A stretch of DNA of 42,926 nucleotides from Candidatus Cerribacteria bacterium 'Amazon FNV 2010 28 9' (lineage in GTDB: Bacteria > Patescibacteriota > Microgenomatia > UBA1400 > UBA12028). The position numbers and the translations under genes are program-made. This document shows, in pieces, positions 13,912 to 42,926 of this stretch. Below the pieces are notes generated by a model, which had not been told where the DNA came from, ran no database searches, and worked only from the letters and a program-made list of their open reading frames with translations. Numbering within the stretch: position 1 is the stretch's first letter; each line of letters opens with the position of its first letter. The stretch spans positions 1 to 42,926 of the forward strand of contig PSRQ01000032.1 of assembly GCA_003176165.1 (NCBI GenBank). Direction: 5' to 3'.

Positions 13912-14691
13912 TTATGTAAATGCATTAAATCCTTGCGCAAGAAGGTTTTGTGTGGGGAGAAATAATGGTTGTGGTAAGTGATCCCATGAGAACCATTTCC
14001 ATTCGCTACATTTGTTTGGTTCCATGACAGTTGGTTCTCCTTGTTGTGAATAAGTGACGATAAAAAGGGTGATGTACTGTTTGTGTTCTTGCTCAAAAAT
14101 ATCGTTGGTATATGGACCAATACGAAGATCCCTAATTTCTAATCCAGTCTCTTCTTTCACCTCACGAATTGCACATTCTTGTGGTGTTTCACCTCCTTCT
14201 AAGTGGCCTCCTGGGAAATTCCATGTTCCGTCGCCATGCGAATTTTTACGTTTGCCCATGAGGACTTTTCCATCACGGATAACAATGACGCCCACTCCAA
14301 CCTTAGGATGAGGGAGTAGTTGTTGTTTAGGGATTGTTCCAAGTTCTTCTTGAAGTTTGTGAACTAACATTGTTGGGTTGCTGTATTCAACAAACAGTGA
14401 AGACACTTCATGAAGAGAAGTTGAAGGTTTGATTCCTTTTTTATGTAGACAGACAATTGTTTTGTTTACATCACTTGCCCAGCCAAGTTCAATCCCTTGT
14501 CCTGTGGAAGGAGAGGAGACTTCAGCGAGAACAAGATCACAGCTTTCAATTACCTTTTTTGTATTGAACCGTTGCTCAGTTGTATGCGGAAAAATAAAAA
14601 TATGATCTTTGGTGAGAGGAGAATCTTGTAGTGGACGATATAACTCGTTGTGAAAATCAAAGTGAGTCGAATGGGAAACAAAAATCACCAT
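13912..14691 (-). CDS. Fusion of a nucleoside deoxyribosyltransferase/DNPH1-like domain and a NUDT15-like Nudix hydrolase
   Basis: N-terminal CDLVLAEVSSPSTGQGIELGWA; C-terminal PKVGVGV...PGGHLEGGETPQECAIREVKEETGL...MEPNKC. Confidence 0.8.
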   Translation of the reverse strand: MVIFVSHSTHFDFHNELYRPLQDSPLTKDHIFIFPHTTEQRFNTKKVIESCDLVLAEVSSPSTGQGIELGWASDVNKTIVCLHKKGIKPSTSLHEVSSLFVEYSNPTMLVHKLQEELGTIPKQQLLPHPKVGVGVIVIRDGKVLMGKRKNSHGDGTWNFPGGHLEGGETPQECAIREVKEETGLEIRDLRIGPYTNDIFEQEHKQYITLFIVTYSQQGEPTVMEPNKCSEWKWFSWDHLPQPLFLPTQNLLAQGFNAFT

Positions 14692-14698
14692 AGAATGT

Positions 14699-15523
14699 TT
14701 ATTCTTCAATTTCAAACGTCAGCTGGTCCTGTGGAATGCCAATCGATATTCCGTACTCAACAGCTTCCTTCCATGTTTCTTTGCTTGTATGTGAAAAAAT
14801 GAATAACTTATGCGGAAAGACTACGATGATCCTGTCGCCGGACCAAAAATGGGCATACCATTTTTGAGGTTTGAGATTATTCACAAGTTGCTCAATTTGT
14901 TTGTTCGTGCCTTCGACGAAATAGAGATGCCAACGTTGTGTTGGATCTTCTTCTGTTGTAACTCTGACTTTTTTGATCGAAAACTCATTGAGCATTCTAT
15001 TGTCTATCAAACTTTCTTCGATGATGATGCCGTGAAAAACCATTTTTTGCCGGAGATAGTGTTTGATGAGTGTGTCCACTTGTGGAGAAACGGAAAGTGG
15101 ATAGACGCTTCCTATTTCTTCTAGAGGAATAAATCTTGCTTGCTCGATGTCTGGATCAGTGGGTGATTCTATGTCCCTGACGATTTGTGCTTCGTAGTAG
15201 AGTTGTAAGGTCTCATGAAAATTTCCTTTGCGGTGATAAAACCAATCAGTGGCGGCAAACAGTAGTTTCCCAATTTTAATAGTTACTCCGCCTTCTTCGA
15301 GAGCTTCACGATGCAATGCTTCTTCAATGGTTTCGCCAAGTTCAATTCCTCCACCGATGACATCATAGTGTTTCTCAAATTTGCTTTTACCGATAAGTAA
15401 TTTCCCATCCTTGATAATCAAAGCGTAGGCAGAGATACGCCAGGTAATGGGTGAGCCGTCGTATTCAACTGGTTCAAGATTAGCATTGATGAAGTGATGC
15501 TGTTTGGGAAGCGTGGAGTTCAT
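14699..15523 (-). CDS. Nudix hydrolase fused to an uncharacterised C-terminal domain
   Basis: Nudix box GGGIELGETIEEALHREALEEGG, then a separate domain (GIIIEESL...WYAHF...GIPQDQL). Confidence 0.78.
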   Translation of the reverse strand: MNSTLPKQHHFINANLEPVEYDGSPITWRISAYALIIKDGKLLIGKSKFEKHYDVIGGGIELGETIEEALHREALEEGGVTIKIGKLLFAATDWFYHRKGNFHETLQLYYEAQIVRDIESPTDPDIEQARFIPLEEIGSVYPLSVSPQVDTLIKHYLRQKMVFHGIIIEESLIDNRMLNEFSIKKVRVTTEEDPTQRWHLYFVEGTNKQIEQLVNNLKPQKWYAHFWSGDRIIVVFPHKLFIFSHTSKETWKEAVEYGISIGIPQDQLTFEIEE

Positions 15524-20216: not shown

Positions 20217-21086
20217 GTGAAATACACAAAACTTCAGTGCGACATTCTTTCCCATCTTTGCTATGCCGCAGTTTTTGATGCAGGGCTGTCAATGGCCGAG
20301 TTGGGTGGAAATAGAGAAGTACTTCAATTTCTCGTTGAACAAAAGAAAATTATTCACAAAAACAGTTTATATGCCTTGCCAACCGTCAACCTCGCCACAT
20401 ACGACAAGCGACGAGTGATCAGTCAACGGAAATTGAAAGCAATTCAACAAGATATTGGTTTGATTGGATGGATTCCAACAATCTTAGGAATTGCTCTGAC
20501 AGGCAGTGTAGCTGCCAAAAACGCTTCCAAAGATGATGACATCGATCTCTTTATCGTGACAAGAAAAAACACGCTGTGGATGACTCGTATGTTGGTTGAG
20601 CTTCTTGTCTTTCTCAACGGGAAATTACGCCGTCCTAATTCAATACATGTGAACGATTTGTGGTGCTTAAACATGTGGGTGGATAGTGATCATCTCGAAA
20701 TGAAAAAACATGATCTCTACATCGCTCATGAGATTGTGCAAGCTCAGTGGATTGTCGATAAAACAGGGATTGAACAGAGATTTATAGAAGAAAACAAGTG
20801 GGTGAAAAAATTCATGATGGGAGAAGTATCAAAGAAATTTTCAATCCGTCAGCTAACGGACAATTTACAATTTTCAAAACTTACACTTCTTATCTCTTAT
20901 TTCTTATCTCTTATTTCTCGTATTCTTGATTGGTTTTGTTATCGTGCGCAACTTGCATACATGCGTTCGCGATTAACAACGGAATATGTGACACGGCATA
21001 CAGCTTTTTTTCACCCACATGATGTGCGGGCTGATGTGTTGAAAAAATATGAGAGAATAATGTCCGAGATAAGAAATAGGAAATAA
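20217..21086 (+). CDS. Pol-beta-like nucleotidyltransferase domain protein
   Basis: ALTGSVAA...DDDIDLFIV (GS...DxD); GTG start 6 nt after TGtTAAGAT. Confidence 0.75.
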   Translation: MKYTKLQCDILSHLCYAAVFDAGLSMAELGGNREVLQFLVEQKKIIHKNSLYALPTVNLATYDKRRVISQRKLKAIQQDIGLIGWIPTILGIALTGSVAAKNASKDDDIDLFIVTRKNTLWMTRMLVELLVFLNGKLRRPNSIHVNDLWCLNMWVDSDHLEMKKHDLYIAHEIVQAQWIVDKTGIEQRFIEENKWVKKFMMGEVSKKFSIRQLTDNLQFSKLTLLISYFLSLISRILDWFCYRAQLAYMRSRLTTEYVTRHTAFFHPHDVRADVLKKYERIMSEIRNRK

Positions 21087-21095
21087 GAGATACGA
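20836..21095. repeat. Compound heptamer arrays with an embedded palindrome in and after the nucleotidyltransferase gene
   Basis: AATTTTC-AAT[CCGTCAGCTAACGGAC]-AATTTAC-AATTTTC at 20836-20875; (TCTTATY)4 at 20888-20915; inverse array GAGATAA GAAATAG GAAATAA GAGATAC at 21066-21093. Confidence 0.8.
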
Positions 21096-26610: not shown

Positions 26611-27096
26611 ATGACCACATTTACTGTTAAAAAAGAAAACGAGCATATTACATTGGATCACTCGGATGAATACCGTATTGAGATCGTGGCTGAAGGGGTG
26701 CAGGTCAAGATCGTCGGGGCATTTGCAACTCATGAAAAAGAGCAGATTGATATTCATTTGACGATTGTGCATAAGGCCGCGCATACGCGAGCCAACACAA
26801 TTCTGAAGGGCGCGGCGTTTGACAACAGTTCGATTCGTTTTTTTGGTCGCATTATCATTGAACCAAATTGTCCGGACACACAATCCTTCTTGGAAGAAAG
26901 AGTGTTGGTGCTTTCAGACAAAGCCAAGGCAGAAACTGTACCGGAACTTGAGATCAAAACTGACGATGTGAAGTGCAGTCATGCAGCAAGTATCAGTCGT
27001 ATCCCCCAAGAACATCTCTTTTATCTCCAGAGTCGCGGGATTCCAAAAGCAAAGGCTGAGGAAATGATTGTGGAGGGTTTTTTGAAACTTGAATAG
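26611..27096 (+). CDS. sufD: Short SufD-like protein (C-terminal SufBD domain only)
   Basis: PELEIKTDDVKCSHAAS and LFYLQSRGI...AEEMIVEGF motifs. Confidence 0.88.
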   Translation: MTTFTVKKENEHITLDHSDEYRIEIVAEGVQVKIVGAFATHEKEQIDIHLTIVHKAAHTRANTILKGAAFDNSSIRFFGRIIIEPNCPDTQSFLEERVLVLSDKAKAETVPELEIKTDDVKCSHAASISRIPQEHLFYLQSRGIPKAKAEEMIVEGFLKLE

Positions 27097-28144
27097 TGAT
27101 ACTATTATTTCCATGGGAAATATTGCTGAGTTTGCCGAACCTCCTTTGCCGATCTATTCTTCTCAAGATCTTGAACGTCGATATCAACGGATAGGAACGT
27201 TGTCAATCTCTGGGGGATTAGGAACCGTAGAAAAAGCTTTGGATATAGAATTGCAACGATTTGTGGCAGTAAAACACCCAACAATAGATCCCTCCTATGA
27301 CGCAAGTGCGATGCAGCGTGAGGCGAAACAGCATGCGAGGGTTGATTCCATCCCTGGTATTGCCAAAATTTATGCATATGGATTAGAAGAAAATGTCCCA
27401 TTCATCGTCATGGAGTGGATTGATGCCCCAACAATCGCGGATCGATTAAAAACAGGAAGCCCCCTTTCTCTTATCGAATCAGTCATGCTCGCGTCAGATA
27501 TGTCTTGGTTGGCTGAAGAGATGGCAAAGCGAGGTGTCATTCATGCTGATTGGAACACTAAGAATGTGTTTTGGTCAAAAGAAAATAGAATCCGACTGGT
27601 CGATTTTGGTATTGCTGTCGGTGTGATCGATCGGCAACAGGGAGCTGCTGGAACGCTGTCGTTTGTTGCTCCTGAGGTTCTCGATCAACGGACTCCAAAC
27701 TTATTTTCCGAACAATGGAGTATTGCTGCTGTTGTCTATGCGAGCCTGGTAGGCAGAGGGCCATTTGATCAACTTGAATCTTCAAGCCTTCCTCTTTTAC
27801 GCGGGAAAATATCAGGAAAAAGAACACGAGATGCAATTATAGAAGGAAAGTACACTCCCTTAGCTAACAATGAGGAGTTTGTTCAACGTCTTCGTAGGAT
27901 AGACGAACCACTCTCGCAGGCACGTGAGCGTGCGCGAGCAATTGATGCAGTTTTTACACAAGTATTTTCTCAAGATTCCAGAGATCGTTTTCCAACCATA
28001 CAAGCTTTTGTACAAGCGCTACAAGATGCATGTGGATTTACCGATGAAGAAATACGAACGCCACGTTTTCCTCTCGAAGAGTCAGATGATCGTGTTCATC
28101 TTGCGCACATAGTCAAAACGTTTTTTCCAAATCAGCGTGAATAA
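27089..28144 (+). CDS. Hanks-type Ser/Thr protein kinase
   Basis: GGLGTV, VAVK, REA, IVMEW, IHADWNTKNV, DFG and GTLSFVAPE motifs. Start uncertain. Confidence 0.88.
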   Translation: MNSDTIISMGNIAEFAEPPLPIYSSQDLERRYQRIGTLSISGGLGTVEKALDIELQRFVAVKHPTIDPSYDASAMQREAKQHARVDSIPGIAKIYAYGLEENVPFIVMEWIDAPTIADRLKTGSPLSLIESVMLASDMSWLAEEMAKRGVIHADWNTKNVFWSKENRIRLVDFGIAVGVIDRQQGAAGTLSFVAPEVLDQRTPNLFSEQWSIAAVVYASLVGRGPFDQLESSSLPLLRGKISGKRTRDAIIEGKYTPLANNEEFVQRLRRIDEPLSQARERARAIDAVFTQVFSQDSRDRFPTIQAFVQALQDACGFTDEEIRTPRFPLEESDDRVHLAHIVKTFFPNQRE

Positions 28145-28147
28145 CTA

Positions 28148-28921
28148 TTAATTTCTCTTTTTCTTTGACTGTTTTTGTGAATTGCTGTTGGGTGCTATGA
28201 AATCAGTGCGAGCAATATTACTTTCGATGCCTGTAATTTCGAGATTATGGTAGACTGTGTGATCCTTACATTCTTTCTTTGTGAATGTTTCAACGGCTGA
28301 CGTGATAACCACGCTTCCTCCATAATCGAGATGTAGTTTTCTGTTTGCAGCAAGTGGAATATCACGATATTCCACAAGTTCGTGATTTTCATCTGAAATA
28401 CGAACATGTGCCACATATTTTGCTTTCGCATCTGCTTCTGGGACCAACACCCCGAATAGATAAGAGAGAAGTCGGGCTTGCTCTGTCGTTATAACGATTA
28501 GCTCTTCTTCACCTTGAATGACTCTAGTGTGTAAGAGAATGCTCGGTTGTGCATCCTCACGAATATGAAGTTCATCGAAAAAGTAAGAAATAAAGGAAGG
28601 CAAAAGGTTTTCCTGGTTTTGAGGTGCAAAAATAATGTCACCAACTGTGGAGTCAATTCCTTCCCAAAATTCATCAGAGTTTTGCTCTTCTATTGCCGCT
28701 TCTTCCCACTTATTGAGTGTATCTATCGCACAGATGAGCGGAACGCAGAAAAAGGGGTCGTATGATTTTAAAATGTCACGAAAAAGATCATCGTTTGCAA
28801 ACGAATCATCGAAGGGAACGGAGTCTTTTGATTTGGGAATGTAGTCGCCTTCAAATTCTGATCGATGATCTGGTTGAAGTGTTTCGGCATCTGCCATAGC
28901 GGCCTTTCTTTTTTCTTTCAT
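28148..28921 (-). CDS. Hypothetical acidic protein
   Basis: 257-aa ORF convergent with the kinase; alternative start at 28897. Confidence 0.65.
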   Translation of the reverse strand: MKEKRKAAMADAETLQPDHRSEFEGDYIPKSKDSVPFDDSFANDDLFRDILKSYDPFFCVPLICAIDTLNKWEEAAIEEQNSDEFWEGIDSTVGDIIFAPQNQENLLPSFISYFFDELHIREDAQPSILLHTRVIQGEEELIVITTEQARLLSYLFGVLVPEADAKAKYVAHVRISDENHELVEYRDIPLAANRKLHLDYGGSVVITSAVETFTKKECKDHTVYHNLEITGIESNIARTDFIAPNSNSQKQSKKKRN

Positions 28922-28930
28922 CCTACACCA

Positions 28931-28960
28931 AAAAAAGAGCCGATGGGAAACCCATCGGCT
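28931..28960 (-). terminator. Intrinsic terminator
   Basis: Minus strand AGCCGATGGG-TTT-CCCATCGGCT-CTTTTTT. Confidence 0.8.
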
Positions 28961-28965
28961 TGTTG

Positions 28966-29295
28966 TTACTCGTTATATGACCATGGCCCACCAGGAACCG
29001 GTGGTTTGAAAGCAGAATGATCAGCGAGCTTAAAGTGCTGTTGCAATGGATGTCTTTTGGCAAATATCCCTGTGGGTGTTTCGTAACACCACAGATATCC
29101 ATCGTTGTCCATTCTCACTGGCCTTTTCCACTCAAGTTGCAGTCCTATCTCTTGTCCTACTTTGTAGTGTAAAAAAGACCGAATAGTAGTGAGTGCGAGT
29201 TCGCGTAGGATGGCATCAATTCCCTTGGGAACGTAACTCTCCAGTTTTTCACGTTCTTCATCAAGCGCGGAACGTAACGCTGGCCATGACGTCAT
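28966..29295 (-). CDS. Hypothetical protein
   Basis: MTSWPALRSAL... with a terminator directly downstream. Confidence 0.55.
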   Translation of the reverse strand: MTSWPALRSALDEEREKLESYVPKGIDAILRELALTTIRSFLHYKVGQEIGLQLEWKRPVRMDNDGYLWCYETPTGIFAKRHPLQQHFKLADHSAFKPPVPGGPWSYNE

Positions 29296-29409
29296 TCTTG
29301 ACTTCTTTTCTCTATCAATACATCCAACGGTGTGTTGAGTATGTACTGTTCGAACGATGTGTTTATTATACACCAGAGAAAGAATTGAGAATTTTGGTAC
29401 AATATACAT

Positions 29410-30672
29410 ATGTTTGATCCGCACATGCTTCAACAAGACTTTCCCATTCTTTCCACGCCGTTAAAAAGTGGGAAAAAGTTGATTTATCTAGACAACGCCG
29501 CCACAAGCCAAAAACCTCAAGTAGTGATCGATGCTATTACTCAGTATTACAAGCGTGACAATGCCAATGTCCATCGTGGTATTCATGAACTTGGTGATCG
29601 ATCTACTCGGAGTTGGCATGAAGCCAGAAAGACAATTGCGACTTTTTTTGGAGCCACTCCAGAGGAATTAGTCATGACGCGCAATACAACTGAAGGGTTA
29701 AACATGGTGGCATATAGTTATGGTGAAGCATGTGTGAGAGAAGGGGACCTCATTCTCACGACCGTCATGGATCATCATAGTAATCAAGTCCCATGGCAGG
29801 AATTGGCACGACGCAAAAAAGCACGACTAGAGATGATCCCAGTAACTAGGGAAGGGATGTTGGATTTGGAATGGCTAGAACGCAAGGTAAAAGTTGAAGG
29901 TGAAAAGGTAAAGATCGTTGCTTTTCCACACGTGTCCAATACCTTGGGGACGCTCAATCCAGTTGAGAAGATTGTTCGCCTTGTTCGTGCGTTTACTAAA
30001 GCGGTTATCGCCCTCGACGCGGCTCAATCGGCTCCGCATTTGCTCATCAATTTTGACAGACTCGGTGTTGATTTCATGGCTGTCTCGGCTCACAAGATGC
30101 TTGGGCCAATGGGAATTGGAGCATTGTTTATTCGCCAATCACTTCTTGAAAACGTCTCACCTTGGTTATTTGGAGGAGGAATGATTGGTGAAGTGACGAA
30201 GGAACGAGCAACATTTGCTGATGATCTTGAAGATCGGTTTACGGCAGGGACACCGGATGTGGCGGGAGCTGTTGGGTGGGCAGCAGCCTGTGAGTATCTC
30301 TCCAAGTTGGATATGAAAAAAGTTGAGCAACATGATAAAGAATTAGTCAACTATACGTTGGAAAAATTACAAGCAATTCCCGAAGTTGAGATTGTTGGAC
30401 CCGTGGAAAGAGTTAAGAGGTATGAGGTAAGAGGTAAGCGTTGTGGTTCCGTGGCATTTTTGTACAAGGGAGTCCACGCCCACGATGTTGCGCAAGTGCT
30501 CGACAGCGAAGGTGTTGCGGTACGCAGTGGGCATCACTGTACGATGCCACTTCATGCTGCGTTTGGATGGGCGGCGACCACACGGGTTAGCTTCAATGTG
30601 TATACGAGTAAAGAAGATATTGATGTATTTGTAAGAGCATTGGGAAAAGTGAAAGAGGTATTTGAGAAATAA
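29410..30672 (+). CDS. sufS: Cysteine desulfurase SufS
   Basis: YLDNAATSQKP, NVHRG, SAHKMLGP (PLP Lys) and RSGHHC motifs. Confidence 0.97.
   Translation: MFDPHMLQQDFPILSTPLKSGKKLIYLDNAATSQKPQVVIDAITQYYKRDNANVHRGIHELGDRSTRSWHEARKTIATFFGATPEELVMTRNTTEGLNMVAYSYGEACVREGDLILTTVMDHHSNQVPWQELARRKKARLEMIPVTREGMLDLEWLERKVKVEGEKVKIVAFPHVSNTLGTLNPVEKIVRLVRAFTKAVIALDAAQSAPHLLINFDRLGVDFMAVSAHKMLGPMGIGALFIRQSLLENVSPWLFGGGMIGEVTKERATFADDLEDRFTAGTPDVAGAVGWAAACEYLSKLDMKKVEQHDKELVNYTLEKLQAIPEVEIVGPVERVKRYEVRGKRCGSVAFLYKGVHAHDVAQVLDSEGVAVRSGHHCTMPLHAAFGWAATTRVSFNVYTSKEDIDVFVRALGKVKEVFEK
30408..30438 (+). repeat. AAGAGGT-type heptamer array inside sufS
   Basis: AAGAGTT AAGAGGT ATGAGGT AAGAGGT AAG. Confidence 0.7.
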
Positions 30673-32404: not shown

Positions 32405-33121
32405 ATGGCTATCTCACAATACACCGCACGTTTGAGTGAAAAAACACAGCTCAATGAAACATATATTTTTTTGCGTTTTGAGTTGCTTTCTCCAGATCGT
32501 ATTGATTTTAGTGCTGGTCAGTATCTTTTGTTAAATACACCCACGACCCCGCAAAAGCGGCAGTACTCGATTGTATCGGCGCCTCGACTTGATCATGCTA
32601 TTGAACTACTAGTTGAAGTCATCCCGAATGGACAAGCAAGTGGGTATCTCAATTCTCTTGCGATTGGAGATGAAGTAACTTTTTATGCTCCTGCTGGTGA
32701 GTTTTTTATTAAACCAGAAGTTATTCAAAGTGATGAACCACTTGTTTTTATTGGTACTGGCTCTGGACTTGCGCCGTTACGGGCAATGATCTTGGATCTC
32801 TTGCGCACTAAAGAATGCAAACGTCCAATTAGGTTGTACTGGGGGATGCGTCATGCGAAAGACCTGTTTTGGTTGGAGGCATTTGAAGAGTTGAAGTCAA
32901 ATTTTCCCAATTTCTCATATCACATTACCATTTCCCAACCAGAGGAGGAGTGGACTCTTTGTAAAGGCCATGTGACGAACTGTCTTTCACTTCATGGTAT
33001 TCCAGAAAATGCTTCGTACTATATTTGCGGAAGTCCTCATATGATTGAGGATGTGATGAAGGTGCTGACTTCGCTTGGAGTCGATGCAGCACACCAACAT
33101 CACGAGAAGTTTACAGTGTAA
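32405..33121 (+). CDS. FAD/NAD(P)-binding ferredoxin reductase-type (FNR-like) oxidoreductase
   Basis: AGQY, RQYSI, GQASGYL, GTGSGLAP and YICGS motifs, ending in EKF. Confidence 0.9.
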   Translation: MAISQYTARLSEKTQLNETYIFLRFELLSPDRIDFSAGQYLLLNTPTTPQKRQYSIVSAPRLDHAIELLVEVIPNGQASGYLNSLAIGDEVTFYAPAGEFFIKPEVIQSDEPLVFIGTGSGLAPLRAMILDLLRTKECKRPIRLYWGMRHAKDLFWLEAFEELKSNFPNFSYHITISQPEEEWTLCKGHVTNCLSLHGIPENASYYICGSPHMIEDVMKVLTSLGVDAAHQHHEKFTV

Positions 33122-33147
33122 AAGTTTTCAATATAGAGAGGACATGT

Positions 33148-33447
33148 ATGAGTGATTCAACAATTCAGCAATCAACCGTCCAGTCGTCTGATATTTCTGT
33201 AGCGCCTGAGGACAAAGCAAAAGGGCCAGGGAAATATCGAGTAAAAGTCAATCGCCCCAAATGTATTGGAGCGGGATCGTGTGTAGCGATTGCTCCCAAA
33301 GTTTTTGGGTTGGATGACAAACAATTGGCGTTTGTCATTTCTGAAGATGAGCTTGATGATATTAAATTATTGGCGGCGCAGAGTTGTCCAACCGCCGCGA
33401 TCATTGTGGAAGATATTGAAACAGGGACGCAAGTATGGCCTCAATAA
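33148..33447 (+). CDS. Single-cluster ferredoxin, predicted [3Fe-4S]
   Basis: CIGAGSC...AAQSCP (CxxAxxC...CP). Confidence 0.88.
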   Translation: MSDSTIQQSTVQSSDISVAPEDKAKGPGKYRVKVNRPKCIGAGSCVAIAPKVFGLDDKQLAFVISEDELDDIKLLAAQSCPTAAIIVEDIETGTQVWPQ

Positions 33448-36780: not shown

Positions 36781-36852
36781 GCTCCCGTAGTCTAATGGAT
36801 AGAACATTGGCCTCCGAAGCTGAAAATGTGCGTTCGATTCGCACCGGGAGCA
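36781..36852 (+). tRNA. tRNA-Arg(CCG)
   Basis: Acceptor GCTCCCG/CGGGAGC, loop CTCCGAA, GTGCG-TTCGATT-CGCAC. Confidence 0.92.
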
Positions 36853-36864
36853 CTGTTCGACTTG

Positions 36865-36957
36865 CCCTTCTGTAGTCCTGAGCTTGTCGAAGAACGAAGG
36901 AGGGTTCCCACCAAAGACACCGAAGAAATTTTCAATTTACGAATTTACAATTTTCAA
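36865..36957. repeat. Palindromic element plus AATTT(A/T)C heptamer array after tRNA-Arg(CCG)
   Basis: CCCTTCTGTAGT[CCTGAGCTTGTCGAAGA]ACGAAGGAGGG, then AATTTTC AATTTAC GAATTTAC AATTTTC. Confidence 0.65.
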
Positions 36958-36978
36958 ACGATAAGGAGTATAGAAAAT

Positions 36979-37404
36979 ATGGAAAACAAAAATGAAACAT
37001 CAGCCGGAGGGGTGGTCTTCCGGAAAAAAGGAAAGAACTACGAAGTATTAATCTCCAAGCACTCTGGATACCACAAGTGGGTATTGCCCAAAGGATTGGT
37101 TGAACAAGGGGAAACGCACGAGCAAACAGCGGTTCGCGAGGTAAAAGAAGAAGTAGGGGTCGAGGCACGCATTATCAAGCCTTTGGGTGAACCTGAATCA
37201 TATATCTATACACTGAATGGTGTTCGTATTTTCAAAAAGGTCTATTATTTTCTTATGGAGTATGTGGGAGGAAGTGAACAAGAACATGATTTTGAGATGG
37301 AGGATGTTGTGTGGGTGAGCATTGACGAAGCAATCGAACGTATGGGATTTGAGGGAGCGAAAAATGTGCTCAAACAGGCTAAAAAAGAGTTAGAAAAGGA
37401 ATAA
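36979..37404 (+). CDS. Nudix hydrolase (Ap4A hydrolase-like)
   Basis: ETSAGGVV and WVLPKGLVEQGETHEQTAVREVKEEVG. Confidence 0.9.
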   Translation: MENKNETSAGGVVFRKKGKNYEVLISKHSGYHKWVLPKGLVEQGETHEQTAVREVKEEVGVEARIIKPLGEPESYIYTLNGVRIFKKVYYFLMEYVGGSEQEHDFEMEDVVWVSIDEAIERMGFEGAKNVLKQAKKELEKE

Positions 37405-38023: not shown

Positions 38024-38187
38024 AGCGGAGAGGGTGGGTATCCCAGGTTGCTATCGCACCTGGGTCCATTTCTCATGTCGCCTCATTGGTGACTTGATGT
38101 GCAGATTCGTAAAGCGACATCGCGCTCTACTCCCTTGTCTTTGAAAACTCAGAAATTGAGTTTTCAAAAGTCAGCGGAGAGGGTGGG
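38024..38187. repeat. 15-bp direct repeat of the tRNA-Ser 3' end (att-like)
   Basis: AGCGGAGAGGGTGGG at 38024-38038 and 38173-38187. Confidence 0.7.
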
Positions 38188-38259
38188 ATTCGAACCCACG
38201 GTGACTTGCGCCACAATCGCTTAGTAGGCGATCGCACTAGACCACTATGCGACCTCTCC
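38175..38259 (-). tRNA. tRNA-Ser with ACT anticodon
   Basis: GGAGAGG TC GCA-TAGTGGTCTAG-TGC G ATCGC-CTACTAA-GCGAT T GTGGC-GCAA-GTCAC C GTGGG-TTCGAAT-CCCAC CCTCTCC G. Confidence 0.9.
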
Positions 38260-38332: not shown

Positions 38333-38557
38333 ATGACAGAGCAGGATAACCCATATCGCCAATTGCAGGAGCGACTGACAGTACTAACCAGGGAAATGCC
38401 TTGTCCGGCTTGTGGCGAACGGAAGCTGCAATTGCGAGGTAACAGTCAGCTTGTGTGTTCCAATAGAGATGGACATCAAAATCACGAGCCGCGAACAGTT
38501 ACGGCGGGGGAAATCGCACAGTTTTTGCGCATTCATCAAATTTCAGCGTCACGATAA
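38333..38557 (+). CDS. Small zinc-ribbon-like protein
   Basis: CPACG...CSNRDGH. Confidence 0.55.
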   Translation: MTEQDNPYRQLQERLTVLTREMPCPACGERKLQLRGNSQLVCSNRDGHQNHEPRTVTAGEIAQFLRIHQISASR

Positions 38558-41338
38558 GACATCTTCCTGAGGTTTTTCCTTGATAAATTCTGCAAGTTCT
38601 GCAATCACGGCAGTGGTGCCATGTTGAACATATCCATCTTGTTGCAATGCCGTGATGCGATCCTGTACATTGAGAGAATCAGGATGAACAAGAATACTCA
38701 AAAATGCTCCATTTACTTCTTTTTCAAACACCAACAGGGTTTGGAAGTATGTAGGATCCCCTGGTTTTTGATATTCTTGCAATATGTGTTGAGCGAGAGG
38801 GTTGCCGCGAAGATCTGAGACAACCCATGACTCTCGCAGCGCATCTTCAGGGAAAAGAAGCGATGTTCGTCGGATGATCGCAGCGATGGCCTGTTCCATT
38901 CGGGTGTATTGATCTCGTTGCTGAGTATCAGATTGTATGTCAGTGTTTGAAGGAAAACGGATAGCCACACACACTTCTCGAGTTCCGCTAATAGTCATTT
39001 GTTCGTGCGTATTGAAGTTCTCAACAGGGAGATCTTCTTCATACTGTGGGTTTAGGTCCCATTGTCCCTTACGATCGACCATTGATTTTTTTGAGTAAAA
39101 AGAAATGTCATCAGGGTGAAAAAGCGAGTCCCCATTCCCATCCTTGAGTGCAAAAAGATCTTGGAGAAGTGCTCCAATATGCTCTTCATTTTGGACGTAC
39201 ATGTTGTAGGTAAGGGTGGGGATATGGCTGTTTACAATCTCTTCAACCTTTGCATGGCTTGCTGCCTCAAAAATGTTGACTCCAGAGGTATACTCGCGGC
39301 GTATGATCTCGAGACCTTCTTGAGCAGCCTGTAGATTTTTACTAATCCTTTCTGAAAATGTGCCACTATTTTTGATCTCATTTGCCAATTCCATACGTTT
39401 AGCATGTCCTTCTTGTCGAGTTAAAAAGGGAAGAGCAGAGAGCTCATACATATTCCCATTTTTGACTAATTCGAGTACTTGAGCACCTCGTTCTCCTAGA
39501 TGTTGTTCAACAAATCGATCGGCGTTTTGTGGAATTTCAGCGACAAAATAGAGCGTTTCTTGCTCTGTTGGGTAGCGAATGATGCGAATTGCTCGAAAAA
39601 TAGCCCCATACGGTATGGTATCTGAAGGGTGTATGAAAGAAATTTCTTGCTGGAGGCGATTGATAAACTCTTCATTTACCCCACCCATGATTCGAATATT
39701 ATTTTTGAGGAAGAACTCATCAATTGATTCTCCACTGCGTTCATCACGTTTTTCAACTTTGGGAAGAAGATTTTTTGTTTCTTTGTGCACCGATTCTGAA
39801 AATACATCAGCATCGGATTCCATAAACACTGTTCGTGCATGTGTCCCTGCAGGGATAAGGCTCATTTTTGCTTGAGCTCGTGCCATGGCGATTTTTAAAA
39901 ACACACGATTTCCAAAGTTCTCTTTGATCCACTGCGCAGCTTCTTTTTCAACTTCTGTTCCGGATGTCATTTTGTCATCCACGAGTTGATTCCATGAGGC
40001 GGACAACGTTTTGATGTAGTCAAGGAATTCAAGTGATGGTGGCAAGATAGAATCAGGAGCCGTGTTAGCAAGTGCAACGAACCCATCGCCTGCAAGTTCT
40101 GAAGGATGCATGTGACGCAGATGTGCACTCGTAACTGCATCCAGGAGCCACTCTCGAAAAAGTGAGGTAATACCTGTCTGCTGTTTGCGGCGCTCGATTA
40201 CTTTTTGTTGTCGTTTCAGTTGATCTTGGGGGCTAAGATGGTGTTGCTCTGTGGAAAATAGTTCATTGAACTCTTTTTCAAATGCGCTTGTGATGGCTGT
40301 CATGCCAGAAATGTCAACATTAACAATTGTTTCTCTCTGGTCTATTGAGATTTCTTGTGTTGCGCGTTTTCCCTCCCGATGTCGGCGAATAGACTGGATA
40401 ATCAGCGATCGTACATCCGTGGGACTTTCATGTGCCTCCTCTGCAATTTCTTCTAGCGTGTACGGAGATTGTCCGATCGTCATCTCTTTGAAGACATCCC
40501 AATGGCTTGTGCAGGTGCGTTCCCATTGATCCCAAGAATCAGGATTAACTCTGGGGTTATTGGTTGCAGATTGTGTCGCTATGATCCCAATGTTGTCAAA
40601 CGTGGCGTTCTTTTTTGTATTTTTGTAACTCTTTTTTTCTAAGAGTGTGGGATCGTCTTCGTCTTGAGTAAGGATAGGAAGAGCCTTCCCGAGTTGGACT
40701 TGTTGTTCAAACGAGGAAAATTCGTTTCCATGTAAAGCAGCCGTTGCCGTAGCTGCAGGGAAGAGAACTCCTTGCGGTGTAACAGAAAGTGCTTGATACA
40801 CAAAAAGCTTTGGCCGTTCATTTCCCTCTGAGGGGATAGCAGCAATGCGTATGGTTGCTGTCTCCTGCGGTTTTCCAATGCTGATCCAGAAGGGAAGGGA
40901 ATTTCCCTTAAGGTTATTTTCTTCCAGTATACGGTTTGCTTGTGCAATGAAACGATCCAATGCTGAGATGGTGTTTGGTGAATCTTTCGTCAATGTGGTA
41001 AATTTGTCACCTTGTTGGAGTGTCCATCCTTGGAGTTGACTAGTCATCAAGCCTGTCAGTTCTCGCTGAAGATGCGGAGGAATATCGTCTCGGAAGGCGA
41101 TGGCAATATATCGATACGGAAGTGTATGGAGATCCACCACAACACGTTTTTTCTCTTGTCGTGCTTTTTCATATGCTCGTGTAATTTGTGCTGCATGCTC
41201 GATAAGTAAGGGACGAATAAATTCCGGTACCGACTCTATAGCCACGGTTCGACCCTGATGTTCACGATCACTCTCGCTCTCTATGAGAGTTTGATTTCTT
41301 TCGTTTATCTGAGGGGAGGGAAAAGAAATGCTGTCCAT
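38549..41338 (-). CDS. Large protein with a divergent class III nucleotidyl cyclase domain
   Basis: IVNVDISGMTAIT and ELAGDGFVAL supply the two metal-binding Asp motifs, followed by FLKIAMA. Confidence 0.6.
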   Translation of the reverse strand: MDSISFPSPQINERNQTLIESESDREHQGRTVAIESVPEFIRPLLIEHAAQITRAYEKARQEKKRVVVDLHTLPYRYIAIAFRDDIPPHLQRELTGLMTSQLQGWTLQQGDKFTTLTKDSPNTISALDRFIAQANRILEENNLKGNSLPFWISIGKPQETATIRIAAIPSEGNERPKLFVYQALSVTPQGVLFPAATATAALHGNEFSSFEQQVQLGKALPILTQDEDDPTLLEKKSYKNTKKNATFDNIGIIATQSATNNPRVNPDSWDQWERTCTSHWDVFKEMTIGQSPYTLEEIAEEAHESPTDVRSLIIQSIRRHREGKRATQEISIDQRETIVNVDISGMTAITSAFEKEFNELFSTEQHHLSPQDQLKRQQKVIERRKQQTGITSLFREWLLDAVTSAHLRHMHPSELAGDGFVALANTAPDSILPPSLEFLDYIKTLSASWNQLVDDKMTSGTEVEKEAAQWIKENFGNRVFLKIAMARAQAKMSLIPAGTHARTVFMESDADVFSESVHKETKNLLPKVEKRDERSGESIDEFFLKNNIRIMGGVNEEFINRLQQEISFIHPSDTIPYGAIFRAIRIIRYPTEQETLYFVAEIPQNADRFVEQHLGERGAQVLELVKNGNMYELSALPFLTRQEGHAKRMELANEIKNSGTFSERISKNLQAAQEGLEIIRREYTSGVNIFEAASHAKVEEIVNSHIPTLTYNMYVQNEEHIGALLQDLFALKDGNGDSLFHPDDISFYSKKSMVDRKGQWDLNPQYEEDLPVENFNTHEQMTISGTREVCVAIRFPSNTDIQSDTQQRDQYTRMEQAIAAIIRRTSLLFPEDALRESWVVSDLRGNPLAQHILQEYQKPGDPTYFQTLLVFEKEVNGAFLSILVHPDSLNVQDRITALQQDGYVQHGTTAVIAELAEFIKEKPQEDVLS

Positions 41339-41380: not shown

Positions 41381-41812
41381 TTATGGTTGAGTTTCGACTG
41401 TCTTCTTCAGCGCCTCTAGTACCGTGCTCCAATTTTGTTGAGAGTGTTCCTTATCATCTTCTGTTGCATTGTTGTCTTGAGTGATCGTGAGCAGTGTCCC
41501 TCCATCTTTTTCCTCCAAAGAGTACACGACTTTTTTGTAGTTTTGCGGCTCATCAGGAAGCCCATAGGCAACACTCCAATACGAAGTTTCAATGAGCTTG
41601 TTTGGAATGATCGCGAGAACTTTTCCTTTATCTTCGTATGGTTTTCCGTCCCAAACTCCCGAGTAGGTGATGGAGCTTCCGACGTTCCAATCCGTCTTCA
41701 TCTCTGTCCCAAATAACCATTGCTTGACGAGTGCTGGATTGGTCAGTGCCTTCCAAACTTTTTCTGGAGGAGCGTCGATCTGAAGAGAAGAGGAAGCTGT
41801 GAGATTTGACAT
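41381..41812 (-). CDS. SRPBCC/AHSA1-like ligand-binding domain protein
   Basis: IDAPPEKVWKALTNP...W.FG...NWSTVLEALKKTVE. Confidence 0.88.
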   Translation of the reverse strand: MSNLTASSSLQIDAPPEKVWKALTNPALVKQWLFGTEMKTDWNVGSSITYSGVWDGKPYEDKGKVLAIIPNKLIETSYWSVAYGLPDEPQNYKKVVYSLEEKDGGTLLTITQDNNATEDDKEHSQQNWSTVLEALKKTVETQP

Positions 41813-41944
41813 ACATGTAGTATACATGATTGCTGTCTACTTCACCTATTGACGCTCTTGCCTATTCGTATTTTCTCTGTGTTGTGCTCGCAAAATAGCT
41901 CATGTACGATGAGGAGATTGTTATAGTGTAAAAAGGAGAGACTC

Positions 41945-42926
41945 ATGTCAAAAGAGCGTCGCTTTATGTTTGCAGAAAAAAGACCAAATTATTTACTTCC
42001 TGTAAAGAGAAAGAAGCGTGGGATTCCAGCAGTGCTAGACAACATACAACTTCTCCTCAATTATGAGAAATTAGAAGTATTCTGCCAAGAACTTCTTGCT
42101 GAAAATGGCATTGCTATTGTCGGAAATCAGTTGTATACATCGCGTCCCGATTTCTTGAACATGATTCATGAAGATGAACGAGATATAAATGGTTCTCACC
42201 GGTTTGGACGAGGTGCTGCAGATTCTTTGGGTGAGGGAACTGGTGGAGGCATTGTCTCAATACCAACGGGGTCAGTGTGGGAGCGCATCCGTGATATTGC
42301 GACCCCTGACTTCAAAGCTGGTGCGATTTACAAAAAAGCGATGCCTCACGCGCAAGAAATCTTTTATGCGTATTGTCAAGAGGTAGCAGCCCAATTACAA
42401 CAAGAAGCTTGGCAGGATGGAGAGCTCCCTATGGATGGGGAGGTTCCTATTTTTGCTGATTTGCGTCGTCTGACAGAGGAAGTCGCGACAGCACATTTGT
42501 ATCCTGAGTTTTCATCCGAAATGCACCACAGTGAGTATCAACGGATCTTGGAAAACTTTAAATCTGCAGTTACGGTAGCAGGAGTACCTGCTCTCATAGG
42601 CATTCATCTTCCTCCGTTTTTAGTTGATCAAGCGAGAGAGAAACTTCAAGCAACATGTTTGGAGCTAATGCAACAACCTGCTGTCCGTGCTGCGGAAGCA
42701 AAAGATCCAAGTTTACTTGGAAAGCTTGCCAATGAGTTTTTACTCAATGGTGAGACTGACTTATTTGTCGGGACAGTTACCGAGATTATTTCTGCAGGAA
42801 GTGAAACGGCGTCTGCCATCGCTTCATTTAGCGTGAAAGAACTGACAAGACCAGAGAGTGCCCAGTGGCAACAACAGATTTTACAAGAGATGAAAGACGC
42901 TGGTGTTGTTTTGACAGCATCCCCAA
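41945..42926 (+). CDS. Cytochrome P450, N-terminal ~327 aa (runs off the right edge)
   Basis: Manual translation: C-helix GIVSIPTGSVWERIRDIATPDF (WxxxR), E-helix DLRRLTEEV, I-helix EIISAGSETAS (AGxET), J-helix QQQILQEM. AAGGAGA RBS. Absent from the ORF track. Confidence 0.8.
   Translation, partial: MSKERRFMFAEKRPNYLLPVKRKKRGIPAVLDNIQLLLNYEKLEVFCQELLAENGIAIVGNQLYTSRPDFLNMIHEDERDINGSHRFGRGAADSLGEGTGGGIVSIPTGSVWERIRDIATPDFKAGAIYKKAMPHAQEIFYAYCQEVAAQLQQEAWQDGELPMDGEVPIFADLRRLTEEVATAHLYPEFSSEMHHSEYQRILENFKSAVTVAGVPALIGIHLPPFLVDQAREKLQATCLELMQQPAVRAAEAKDPSLLGKLANEFLLNGETDLFVGTVTEIISAGSETASAIASFSVKELTRPESAQWQQQILQEMKDAGVVLTASP

Follow-up and report, generated by a model that had tools for sequence, protein, structure and literature searches.

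The window, the stretch of DNA described here, is the entire contig C19 (PSRQ01000032.1; 42,926 nucleotides) of Candidatus Cerribacteria bacterium 'Amazon FNV 2010 28 9', a member of the candidate phyla radiation (CPR). At its 3′ end lies an open reading frame (ORF) predicted to encode the N-terminal part of a cytochrome P450, transcribed divergently from the gene of a small protein with the SRPBCC fold. Genes for a flavoprotein reductase and a ferredoxin are found further upstream. CPR bacteria, or Patescibacteria, are generally seen as symbionts that live by fermentation, lack a respiratory chain and heme synthesis, and have little lipid metabolism. A preliminary description, made from the letters of the window, had called the ORF a P450 on the basis of WxxxR, AGSET and J-helix sequences in the proper order, and had placed the ExxR and heme-cysteine motifs beyond the contig end. 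As set out below, both readings hold: the motifs align at the expected places, and what is likely the missing C-terminal third of the protein was located at the end of a second contig of the same genome.

The ORF (41945–42925, plus strand) begins with ATG, runs for 327 codons without a stop and is open at the 3′ end of the contig; the Shine–Dalgarno sequence that precedes it is graded strong. Residues 112–116 read WERIR (window 42278–42292), within a B′–C region that follows the pattern GxG..W...R..P.F. The I-helix sequence AGSET occupies residues 284–288 (window 42794–42808), with E287 and T288 as the acid–alcohol pair, and is placed on the AGFET or AGHET of other P450s by MAFFT. The segment directly after it, LTRPESAQWQQQILQEMKDAG, aligns to the J-helix region of other P450s. 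A hydrophobic N-terminal anchor is absent, the top 19-residue hydropathy window being internal, at residue 209.

Comparison with a P450 profile supports the assignment. The profile (A3) holds 38 P450s: 36 picked from the best 120 of 609 proteins at E ≤ 1e-10, together with the P450 of another CPR genome (G337, described below) and P0002, of a family of ∼448-residue E-class soluble P450s (PF00067). In hhalign, residues 45–309 of the ORF product are colinear with profile positions 25–284 over 242 columns (E 3e-5, probability 73%). When all ORFs of at least 40 residues in the six frames of the genome (n = 13,050) were searched with A3 by hmmsearch, the N-terminal ORF ranked second, with E 0.024, and the third ORF had E 0.87. 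BLASTP against P0002 (E 0.002) paired LGEGTGGGIVSIPTGSVWERIRDIATPDF with LRELVGDGIL-MSEGEKWRKQRRLIQPTF, an alignment that covers the B′–C region including W...R..P.F. All 30 feature neighbors in the ESM Atlas were clusters of P450s; their top score, 0.95, is one that, according to the tool, shuffled proteins reach about once in 100. The Atlas model (predicted template modeling score 0.67) superposes residues 13–323 on a CYP709B2-like cluster with a template modeling (TM) score of 0.73. Judged from these comparisons, 41945–42926 codes for the N-terminal two thirds of a protein that is a true, if strongly diverged, cytochrome P450.

When the genome as a whole was searched with PF00067, a single match emerged, at 20706–21095 on the minus strand of contig C24 (21,144 bases), with E 6.1e-23; the ORF that holds it attains 81.5 bits (E 7e-23), where the cut-off is 22.8. 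This ORF supplies the motifs that the N-terminal piece lacks. The K-helix ExxR reads EVLR (residues 23–26 of the piece) and aligns to ETLRLYP; the meander, with its PERF-type arginine, reads FNINRW (residues 86–91) and aligns to F.PERF; the cysteine loop reads FNNGSPRDCIG (residues 115–125), and both the cysteine and the arginine two residues upstream of it align to those of P450 structures. The L-helix carries ALAMMEIKL. In hhalign the piece covers A3 positions 308–418 (E 8e-23), and 103 P450 chains of the PDB match it at E ≤ 0.001, the best being CYP102-type, CYP11A1 and CYP3A4. Among longer proteins it has one match, P0002, with 33% identity over 79% of the piece. The search for ExxR and FxxGxxxCxG beyond the contig, proposed as a check in the preliminary description, yielded both elements on C24 in recognizable form, with the qualification that the heme cysteine loop exceeds the consensus F..G...C.G by one residue. 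The consensus spacing occurs in 118 of 120 comparison P450s; the longer form occurs in none of the 120, and two fit neither. Loss of the heme cysteine or a frameshift downstream, which had been named beforehand as refuting the P450 assignment, is not seen in the sequence available.

The two pieces are likely to be parts of one gene, which would have ∼503 codons or a few more and be interrupted by a gap of the assembly in the J–K loop, as several features of their sequences indicate. They are the only two P450-like ORFs among the 13,050 (E 0.024 and, for the C-terminal piece, 1.7e-20; next 0.87), they cover the A3 profile once, and they sit at contig ends that face each other. One base is left beyond the last full codon of C19 and one before the first codon of the reverse-complemented C24 frame, so the missing stretch would measure 3n+1 bases. 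Codon usage is alike in the two (z = −0.14 for the N-terminal and −0.05 for the C-terminal piece, relative to the 637 genome ORFs of at least 200 residues), as is the GC content (0.445 and 0.450). The low read depth, ∼3x, is sufficient reason for the break between the contigs.

The alternative that the pieces belong to two separate P450 genes, or that the contigs are not neighbors and the other halves went unassembled, gains from the lack of any direct bridge. The ends of C19 and C24 share no overlap of 6 bases or more, and no bridging read was found. In the one public soil-metagenome run located (∼3x, Logan), four unitigs cover the last 1.6 kb of the window without loose ends and stop at 42693; the uncovered stretch beyond that point says nothing for or against the join. 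An exact 38-mer of the contig end had no match among metagenome contigs, and a protein-pattern scan of metagenome contigs returned 101 pattern matches with neither a relative nor a bridge among them. Synteny does not join the contigs: no C24 protein matched the neighborhoods of the FNR locus in four relatives. No more than 2 of 20 relatives carry the C24 glycosylase gene, which in them lies on small contigs, and the NUDIX gene at 36826–37404 has scattered paralogous matches only. Moreover, the genome is estimated to be 95% complete and is in 65 contigs, and the distance from the I-helix threonine to the ExxR glutamate is at least 62 residues even with zero missing codons, about 10 more than in relatives; among the 114 of 121 proteins (a set that includes the query piece) in which both patterns matched, this distance has a median of 52 and reaches 55 at most. 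Since the spacing already reaches 62 without added codons, the gap probably amounts to a few codons and the J–K loop would be unusually long. Two separate genes are nonetheless very unlikely. One N-type and one C-type piece are all that was found, compatible in orientation, frame and composition, and with P450s in 3 of 401 genomes of the phylum, two of them in one genome, broken in complementary places, are improbable. The one-gene reading is used in what follows, and the features are collected in Table 1.

Table 1. Positions of the P450 pieces and of the other features discussed (window coordinates unless a contig is named)
Feature	Position	Strand	Remarks
P450 N-terminal piece, helices A to J	41945..42926	+	327 codons plus 1 base
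P450 C-terminal piece	C24:20616-21143	-	175 codons plus stop, open at contig end
AHSA1/SRPBCC-fold protein, 148 aa	41381..41827	-	PF08327 E 2.1e-27; PDB 2leq E 2.2e-36
Divergent intergenic spacer SRPBCC/P450, 117 bp	41828..41944	.	AAGGAG 7 nt before P450 ATG
929-aa protein	38549..41338	-	42 bp downstream of and co-oriented with SRPBCC gene; same non-syntenic segment
Supernumerary tRNA-Ser(ACT)	38174..38259	-	Inner edge of non-syntenic segment
FNR-like flavoprotein reductase, 238 aa	32405..33121	+	FAD_binding_6 and NAD_binding_1; candidate first donor
Single-cluster ferredoxin, 99 aa	33148..33447	+	Fer4_13; candidate direct donor to P450

The assembled protein has the order of signatures common to the P0002 family (GxG..W...R..P.F, AGxET, ExxR, the meander F..x.RW/F, the Cys loop and the L-helix ALAMMEIKL), with an identity far below family level. 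It is ∼55 residues longer than P0002, with an N-terminal extension of ∼20 residues and a J–K loop ∼10 residues longer. The heme region and meander of CYP102-type, CYP3A4 and CYP11A1 structures (7f3h, 7f3w, 9njw, 5vcd) align to the C24 piece with E 1e-10 to 1e-8; unlike those enzymes, the present protein has neither a fused reductase domain nor an N-terminal membrane anchor. The protein is a new and very divergent member of the cytochrome P450 superfamily, in a lineage where P450 genes are rare though not limited to this one. PF00067 was matched in 2 of the 201 genomes sampled from the order and in 3 of the 401 sampled from the phylum, the present genome being included in both counts, and the N-terminal piece found no match in any of 40 relatives. 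The other carriers, G010 (414 residues; L004:847-2091), G337 (444 residues; L005:1402-2736) and G472 (394 residues; L006:757-1941), hold P450s of ordinary length that are mutually unrelated. Like the present case, these are sporadic single genes in ∼1-Mb genomes of the same phylum; they are 17%–18% identical to the present protein, no closer than any other P450, and their neighbors differ. These P450s look like separate acquisitions. Set against typical CPR DNA, the G337 locus appears rich in GC and has many long ORFs that overlap one another. A literature search that mostly screened titles turned up no publication about P450s of CPR, which does not establish their absence from print; the P450 passages of PMC6064768 and PMC7125106 and the Patescibacteria passage of PMC12416667 contain nothing on them.

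The gene likely belongs to a Woesebacteria-like CPR organism. The genome comprises 1,055,589 bases in 65 contigs, with an estimated completeness of 95.3% and contamination of 0.74%, and the genomes of 40 relatives range from 0.7 to 1.3 Mb. The window carries genes for YidC, a KhpA/Jag-like protein, RNase H, L25, leucyl-tRNA synthetase (LeuRS), a two-component pair, four NUDIX proteins and a SUF Fe-S cluster system. LeuRS is 67%–69% identical to that of family members, and its closest named records are from Candidatus Woesebacteria (67%–68%), a Patescibacteria group bacterium (67%) and a Microgenomates group bacterium (60%). The earlier impression of a CPR-like genome agrees with this placement and with the size of 1.06 Mb. 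Some records with LeuRS 65%–69% identical, found amid those of Woesebacteria and Microgenomates, are titled 'uncultured Pseudomonadales' or 'Gammaproteobacteria'; these labels look wrong.

Contamination or chimerism, in which the P450 pieces would come from another soil organism and have been misjoined or misbinned with the CPR genome, left no sign, at a depth of only ∼3x. That both pieces lie at contig ends, that depth is so low in the sole public run found and that records of the nearest, still distant, family (P0002 and its kin) carry the names Bdellovibrionales, Cystobacter, Anaerolineales and Haloferax would fit such an origin. The codon usage and GC content of the pieces, on the other hand, are indistinguishable from those of the 637 genome ORFs, and the N-terminal piece sits on one unbroken contig with 42 kb of housekeeping genes of CPR type. 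The SRPBCC–P450 junction (41716–41964) recurs at 100% identity in a unitig that was built independently, though perhaps out of the same reads. C24 is the sole source of tRNA-Ser(GCT) and tRNA-Ser(TGA), essential members of a nearly non-redundant set of 43 tRNAs, and its glycosylase gene, adjoining the P450, is family-typical, with 53%–56% identity to relatives in two family members. The estimated contamination is below 1%, and no close relative resembling a donor was found. Given these observations, a foreign origin of the assembled sequence is only a slim prospect.

Transfer of electrons to the P450 could be provided by the reductase and ferredoxin of the window. The ferredoxin motif, CIGAGSC...SCP, conforms to CxxAxxC(x)nCP, and this is the sole Fer4_13 match in the genome; neither Flavodoxin_1 nor Fer2 ([2Fe-2S] ferredoxin) was found there. 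In PMC6237146, CxxA/GxxC(x)nCP is assigned to [3Fe-4S] ferredoxins, and single-cluster ferredoxins are described as supporting class I P450s. In analogy to the class I ferredoxin–CYP pairs of Mycobacterium marinum and M. tuberculosis (Child et al. 2018, PMC6237146), this genome encodes a small ferredoxin of the CxxAxxC(x)nCP form and a flavoprotein reductase for NAD(P)H. Unlike the mycobacterial pairs, the present ferredoxin is not adjacent to the P450 but lies 8.5 kb away. A second difference concerns the reductase. In class I P450 systems the ferredoxin reductase is usually of the glutathione-reductase type, whereas the present enzyme is of the FNR type. The reductase/ferredoxin pair was found in every one of the 13 family genomes and in 32 of 40 relatives, of which nearly all lack a P450, and the ferredoxin is 78%–86% identical in relatives that have none. 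Because the pair is core in P450-less relatives, it is not a dedicated partner; since no other carrier was found in the genome, it is the likely donor by elimination. The 32405–33447 pair, which the preliminary description had put forward for use with the P450, is a plausible donor and the only recognizable one of P450 type, but is not specific to the P450. In the SUF cluster of the same contig (25057–27096), a 481-residue SufB/D-type gene is followed by a 169-residue ORF that covers only positions 95–232 of SUFBD_core; this ORF may represent a short SufD, a gene that is truncated or a problem with the start codon.

The supply of heme was considered as well. No member of the ALAD, porphobilinogen deaminase, URO-D or ferrochelatase family was detected in this genome of 95% completeness, nor was cytochrome bd. 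Two other families of heme-b proteins are present: a Cyt-b5-domain protein (C11:15252-15938, E 2e-8; 228 residues) with a MAPR-like domain, a hydrophobic N-terminal segment and a C-terminal membrane part, and a Ferric_reduct-family membrane protein (C22:1357-1707, E 2.4e-10). Heme b is bound without covalent attachment machinery, so uptake alone would suffice, and the presence of these two genes makes heme scavenging plausible. This agrees with the scavenged heme that the preliminary description had assumed. One preprint (bioRxiv 10.1101/2021.11.17.468889) describes cytochrome b5 and ferric-reductase genes from CPR.

The protein encoded next to the P450 matches PF08327 over its full length (profile positions 1–125 of 125), and its PDB match, 2leq, is annotated 'uncharacterized protein'. 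The divergent arrangement with an SRPBCC gene was described correctly; no consensus promoter site was detected inside the spacer. A functional module of the two, as the preliminary description had proposed, is not borne out: the adjacency is seen in one genome only, the P450 piece having no match in the 40 relatives, in which the SRPBCC protein itself has two weak, paralogue-level matches (29%–30% identity). Any link between P450 and SRPBCC protein beyond adjacency is conjecture. For the 929-residue ORF that follows, no family was found in Pfam, NCBIfam or PADLOC; a weak PHROG/DUF5856 match covers residues 598–650, and the ESM Atlas places it near adenylate/guanylate-cyclase-like clusters (score 0.93) with a TM score of at most 0.24, a lead only.

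These genes lie in a part of the contig that differs among relatives. Four close relatives share the order NifU, NTPase, FNR-like reductase, ferredoxin and DsbA. From 36826 onward (NUDIX, MazG, 929-residue ORF, SRPBCC, P450), the window has no match in the neighborhoods of these four, and among the 19 window proteins tested the same holds for those at 27089–29436, 31160, 34124 and 35807. The absence of matches from 36826 on and the near-absence of the SRPBCC protein in relatives place the P450 in an accessory stretch. The tRNA-Ser(ACT) gene at its inner edge is a fifth tRNA-Ser with an unusual anticodon, besides GCT, TGA, CGA and GGA. A decayed copy of it (C24:20330-20560), divided in two by the intact tRNA-Ser(TGA), lies 150 bp away from the stop codon of the P450; its 5′ part matches at 28 of 29 nucleotides and its 3′ part at 25 of 29, with a broken T-stem, and a hairpin-plus-T-run terminator stands between the parts. 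The acceptor stems of the two copies differ by a compensatory change (GGAGGGG/CCCCTCC versus GGAGAGG/CCTCTCC), and a 16-mer common to both directly follows each. If the contigs abut, direct repeats would bracket ∼5.3 kb with the 929-residue, SRPBCC and P450 genes, a hint of an old insertion or duplication.

Two more specific origins of this segment were considered and set aside. For a mobile element as the source of the 4.9-kb segment, no phage match was found, and plasmids gave only a 39-nt tRNA-like match. For a classical tRNA-integrated island, no integrase was found, and the intact tRNA copy lies on the unexpected side. Close to the tRNA gene, a repeat at 38067–38109 has an 86% copy over 43 nt on contig C58 (5783–5825) and an exact 19-nt copy on C38 (143–161). 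Four NUDIX genes and a MazG-like pyrophosphohydrolase occur in this one 43-kb contig (13912–15553, 22844–23326 and 36826–37762); the NUDIX gene at 13912–14715 has a weak nucleoside 2-deoxyribosyltransferase-like N-terminal part.

All catalytic residue classes of a P450 are present in the two pieces: W...R of the C-helix, E287–T288, ExxR, the meander arginine, the cysteine and the arginine two residues before it. From these residues and the gene content, it appears probable that the single gene of this CPR organism encodes a soluble, O2-dependent heme-thiolate monooxygenase that works through housekeeping electron donors. The enzyme would load scavenged heme b; two electrons would pass from NAD(P)H to the FNR-like reductase, then to the [3Fe-4S]-type ferredoxin and on to the P450, with both donors encoded on the same contig; and the reaction would be the hydroxylation of a small hydrophobic compound acquired from a host cell or the surroundings. 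The SRPBCC protein may bind the hydrophobic compound on which the P450 acts. That the substrate is hydrophobic is suggested by the SRPBCC neighbor and by the lipid-type best matches only; a host-derived lipid as substrate is conjecture.

A P450 fold with a different chemistry, that of a peroxygenase or hydroperoxide enzyme in the style of CYP152 or CYP74, with no O2 activation and no redox partner, would suit an anaerobe-like cell, CPR having few redox partners. The altered length of the Cys loop also recalls the CYP74 enzymes, which have an insertion in this loop; here, the insertion is one residue only. Furthermore, the acid–alcohol pair of the I-helix, a usual mark of O2-activating monooxygenases that CYP152 and CYP74 have lost, is kept in the present protein as E287–T288. 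Monooxygenases (CYP102-type, CYP11A1 and CYP3A4) head the PDB matches, and the genome offers a suitable reductase/ferredoxin pair. Such a chemistry is hardly to be expected, and is the least probable of the alternatives considered here.

A further possibility is that the gene is a relic, acquired horizontally and intact by chance or only recently acquired, whose product is not heme-loaded, or is crippled by the longer Cys and J–K loops, and has no role. The orphan status of the sequence, the Cys loop longer than in 118 of 120 comparison P450s, the missing genes of heme synthesis and the position in a non-syntenic accessory stretch alongside a decayed tRNA copy would all be in keeping with this. 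Yet the two pieces together hold 502 codons without a stop and retain WxxxR, the E–T pair, ExxR, the meander arginine and the arginine before the cysteine. Their codon usage has become fully that of the genome, a sign of long residence, the Shine–Dalgarno sequence is strong, and other heme-b proteins have been kept in the genome. A relic is judged unlikely.

The reading as a monooxygenase encoded by one gene also faces evidence that weighs against it, beyond the lack of a bridge between the contigs. The 327-residue piece has no Pfam match at E ≤ 1, with the P450 model included, and NCBIfam (E ≤ 1), PADLOC and PHROGs gave nothing usable for it. A homologue search against proteins of 179–573 residues retrieved only the piece itself, and phmmer against 1.84 billion representative proteins found no relative at E ≤ 0.001, only the query. 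No orthologue was found in anything searched. Of the 10 weak matches from the PDB, the best is a non-P450, TauD (E 0.21). The remaining nine are CYP51 chains in the correct register (E 0.6–0.9), with query residues 153–317 on chain positions ∼126–295 and AGSETA on AGQHTS (e.g., 3k1o, E 0.6); these N-terminal matches are not significant. Neither they nor the structure matches of the C-terminal piece permit an inference about the substrate. The single-sequence AlphaFold2 model of the piece is unusable, with a predicted local distance difference test score of 42. Either the lengthened Cys loop or the long J–K loop could impair function. Finally, the link to the SRPBCC protein is conjectural, the electron donors are not dedicated, and the gene is known from one low-coverage genome in which it is split over two contigs.

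A fuller version of the proposal would have a working three-component P450 in a heme-auxotrophic CPR cell that, with the SRPBCC protein, oxidizes a lipid or isoprenoid of the host or the environment and founds a new CYP family. In this full form the proposal is doubtful, though it remains of interest for what it would entail.

As an extreme sequence orphan in a well-sampled superfamily, with an unusual loop around the heme ligand, the protein is a natural test of how variable this loop may be. If the P450 is functional, some CPR bacteria import heme, meet oxygen and modify hydrophobic compounds that they cannot make, which would bear on their interaction with hosts. Should the three-component reading be true, some of the CPR regarded as 'fermentative' would carry out O2-dependent chemistry with borrowed cofactors and substrates.

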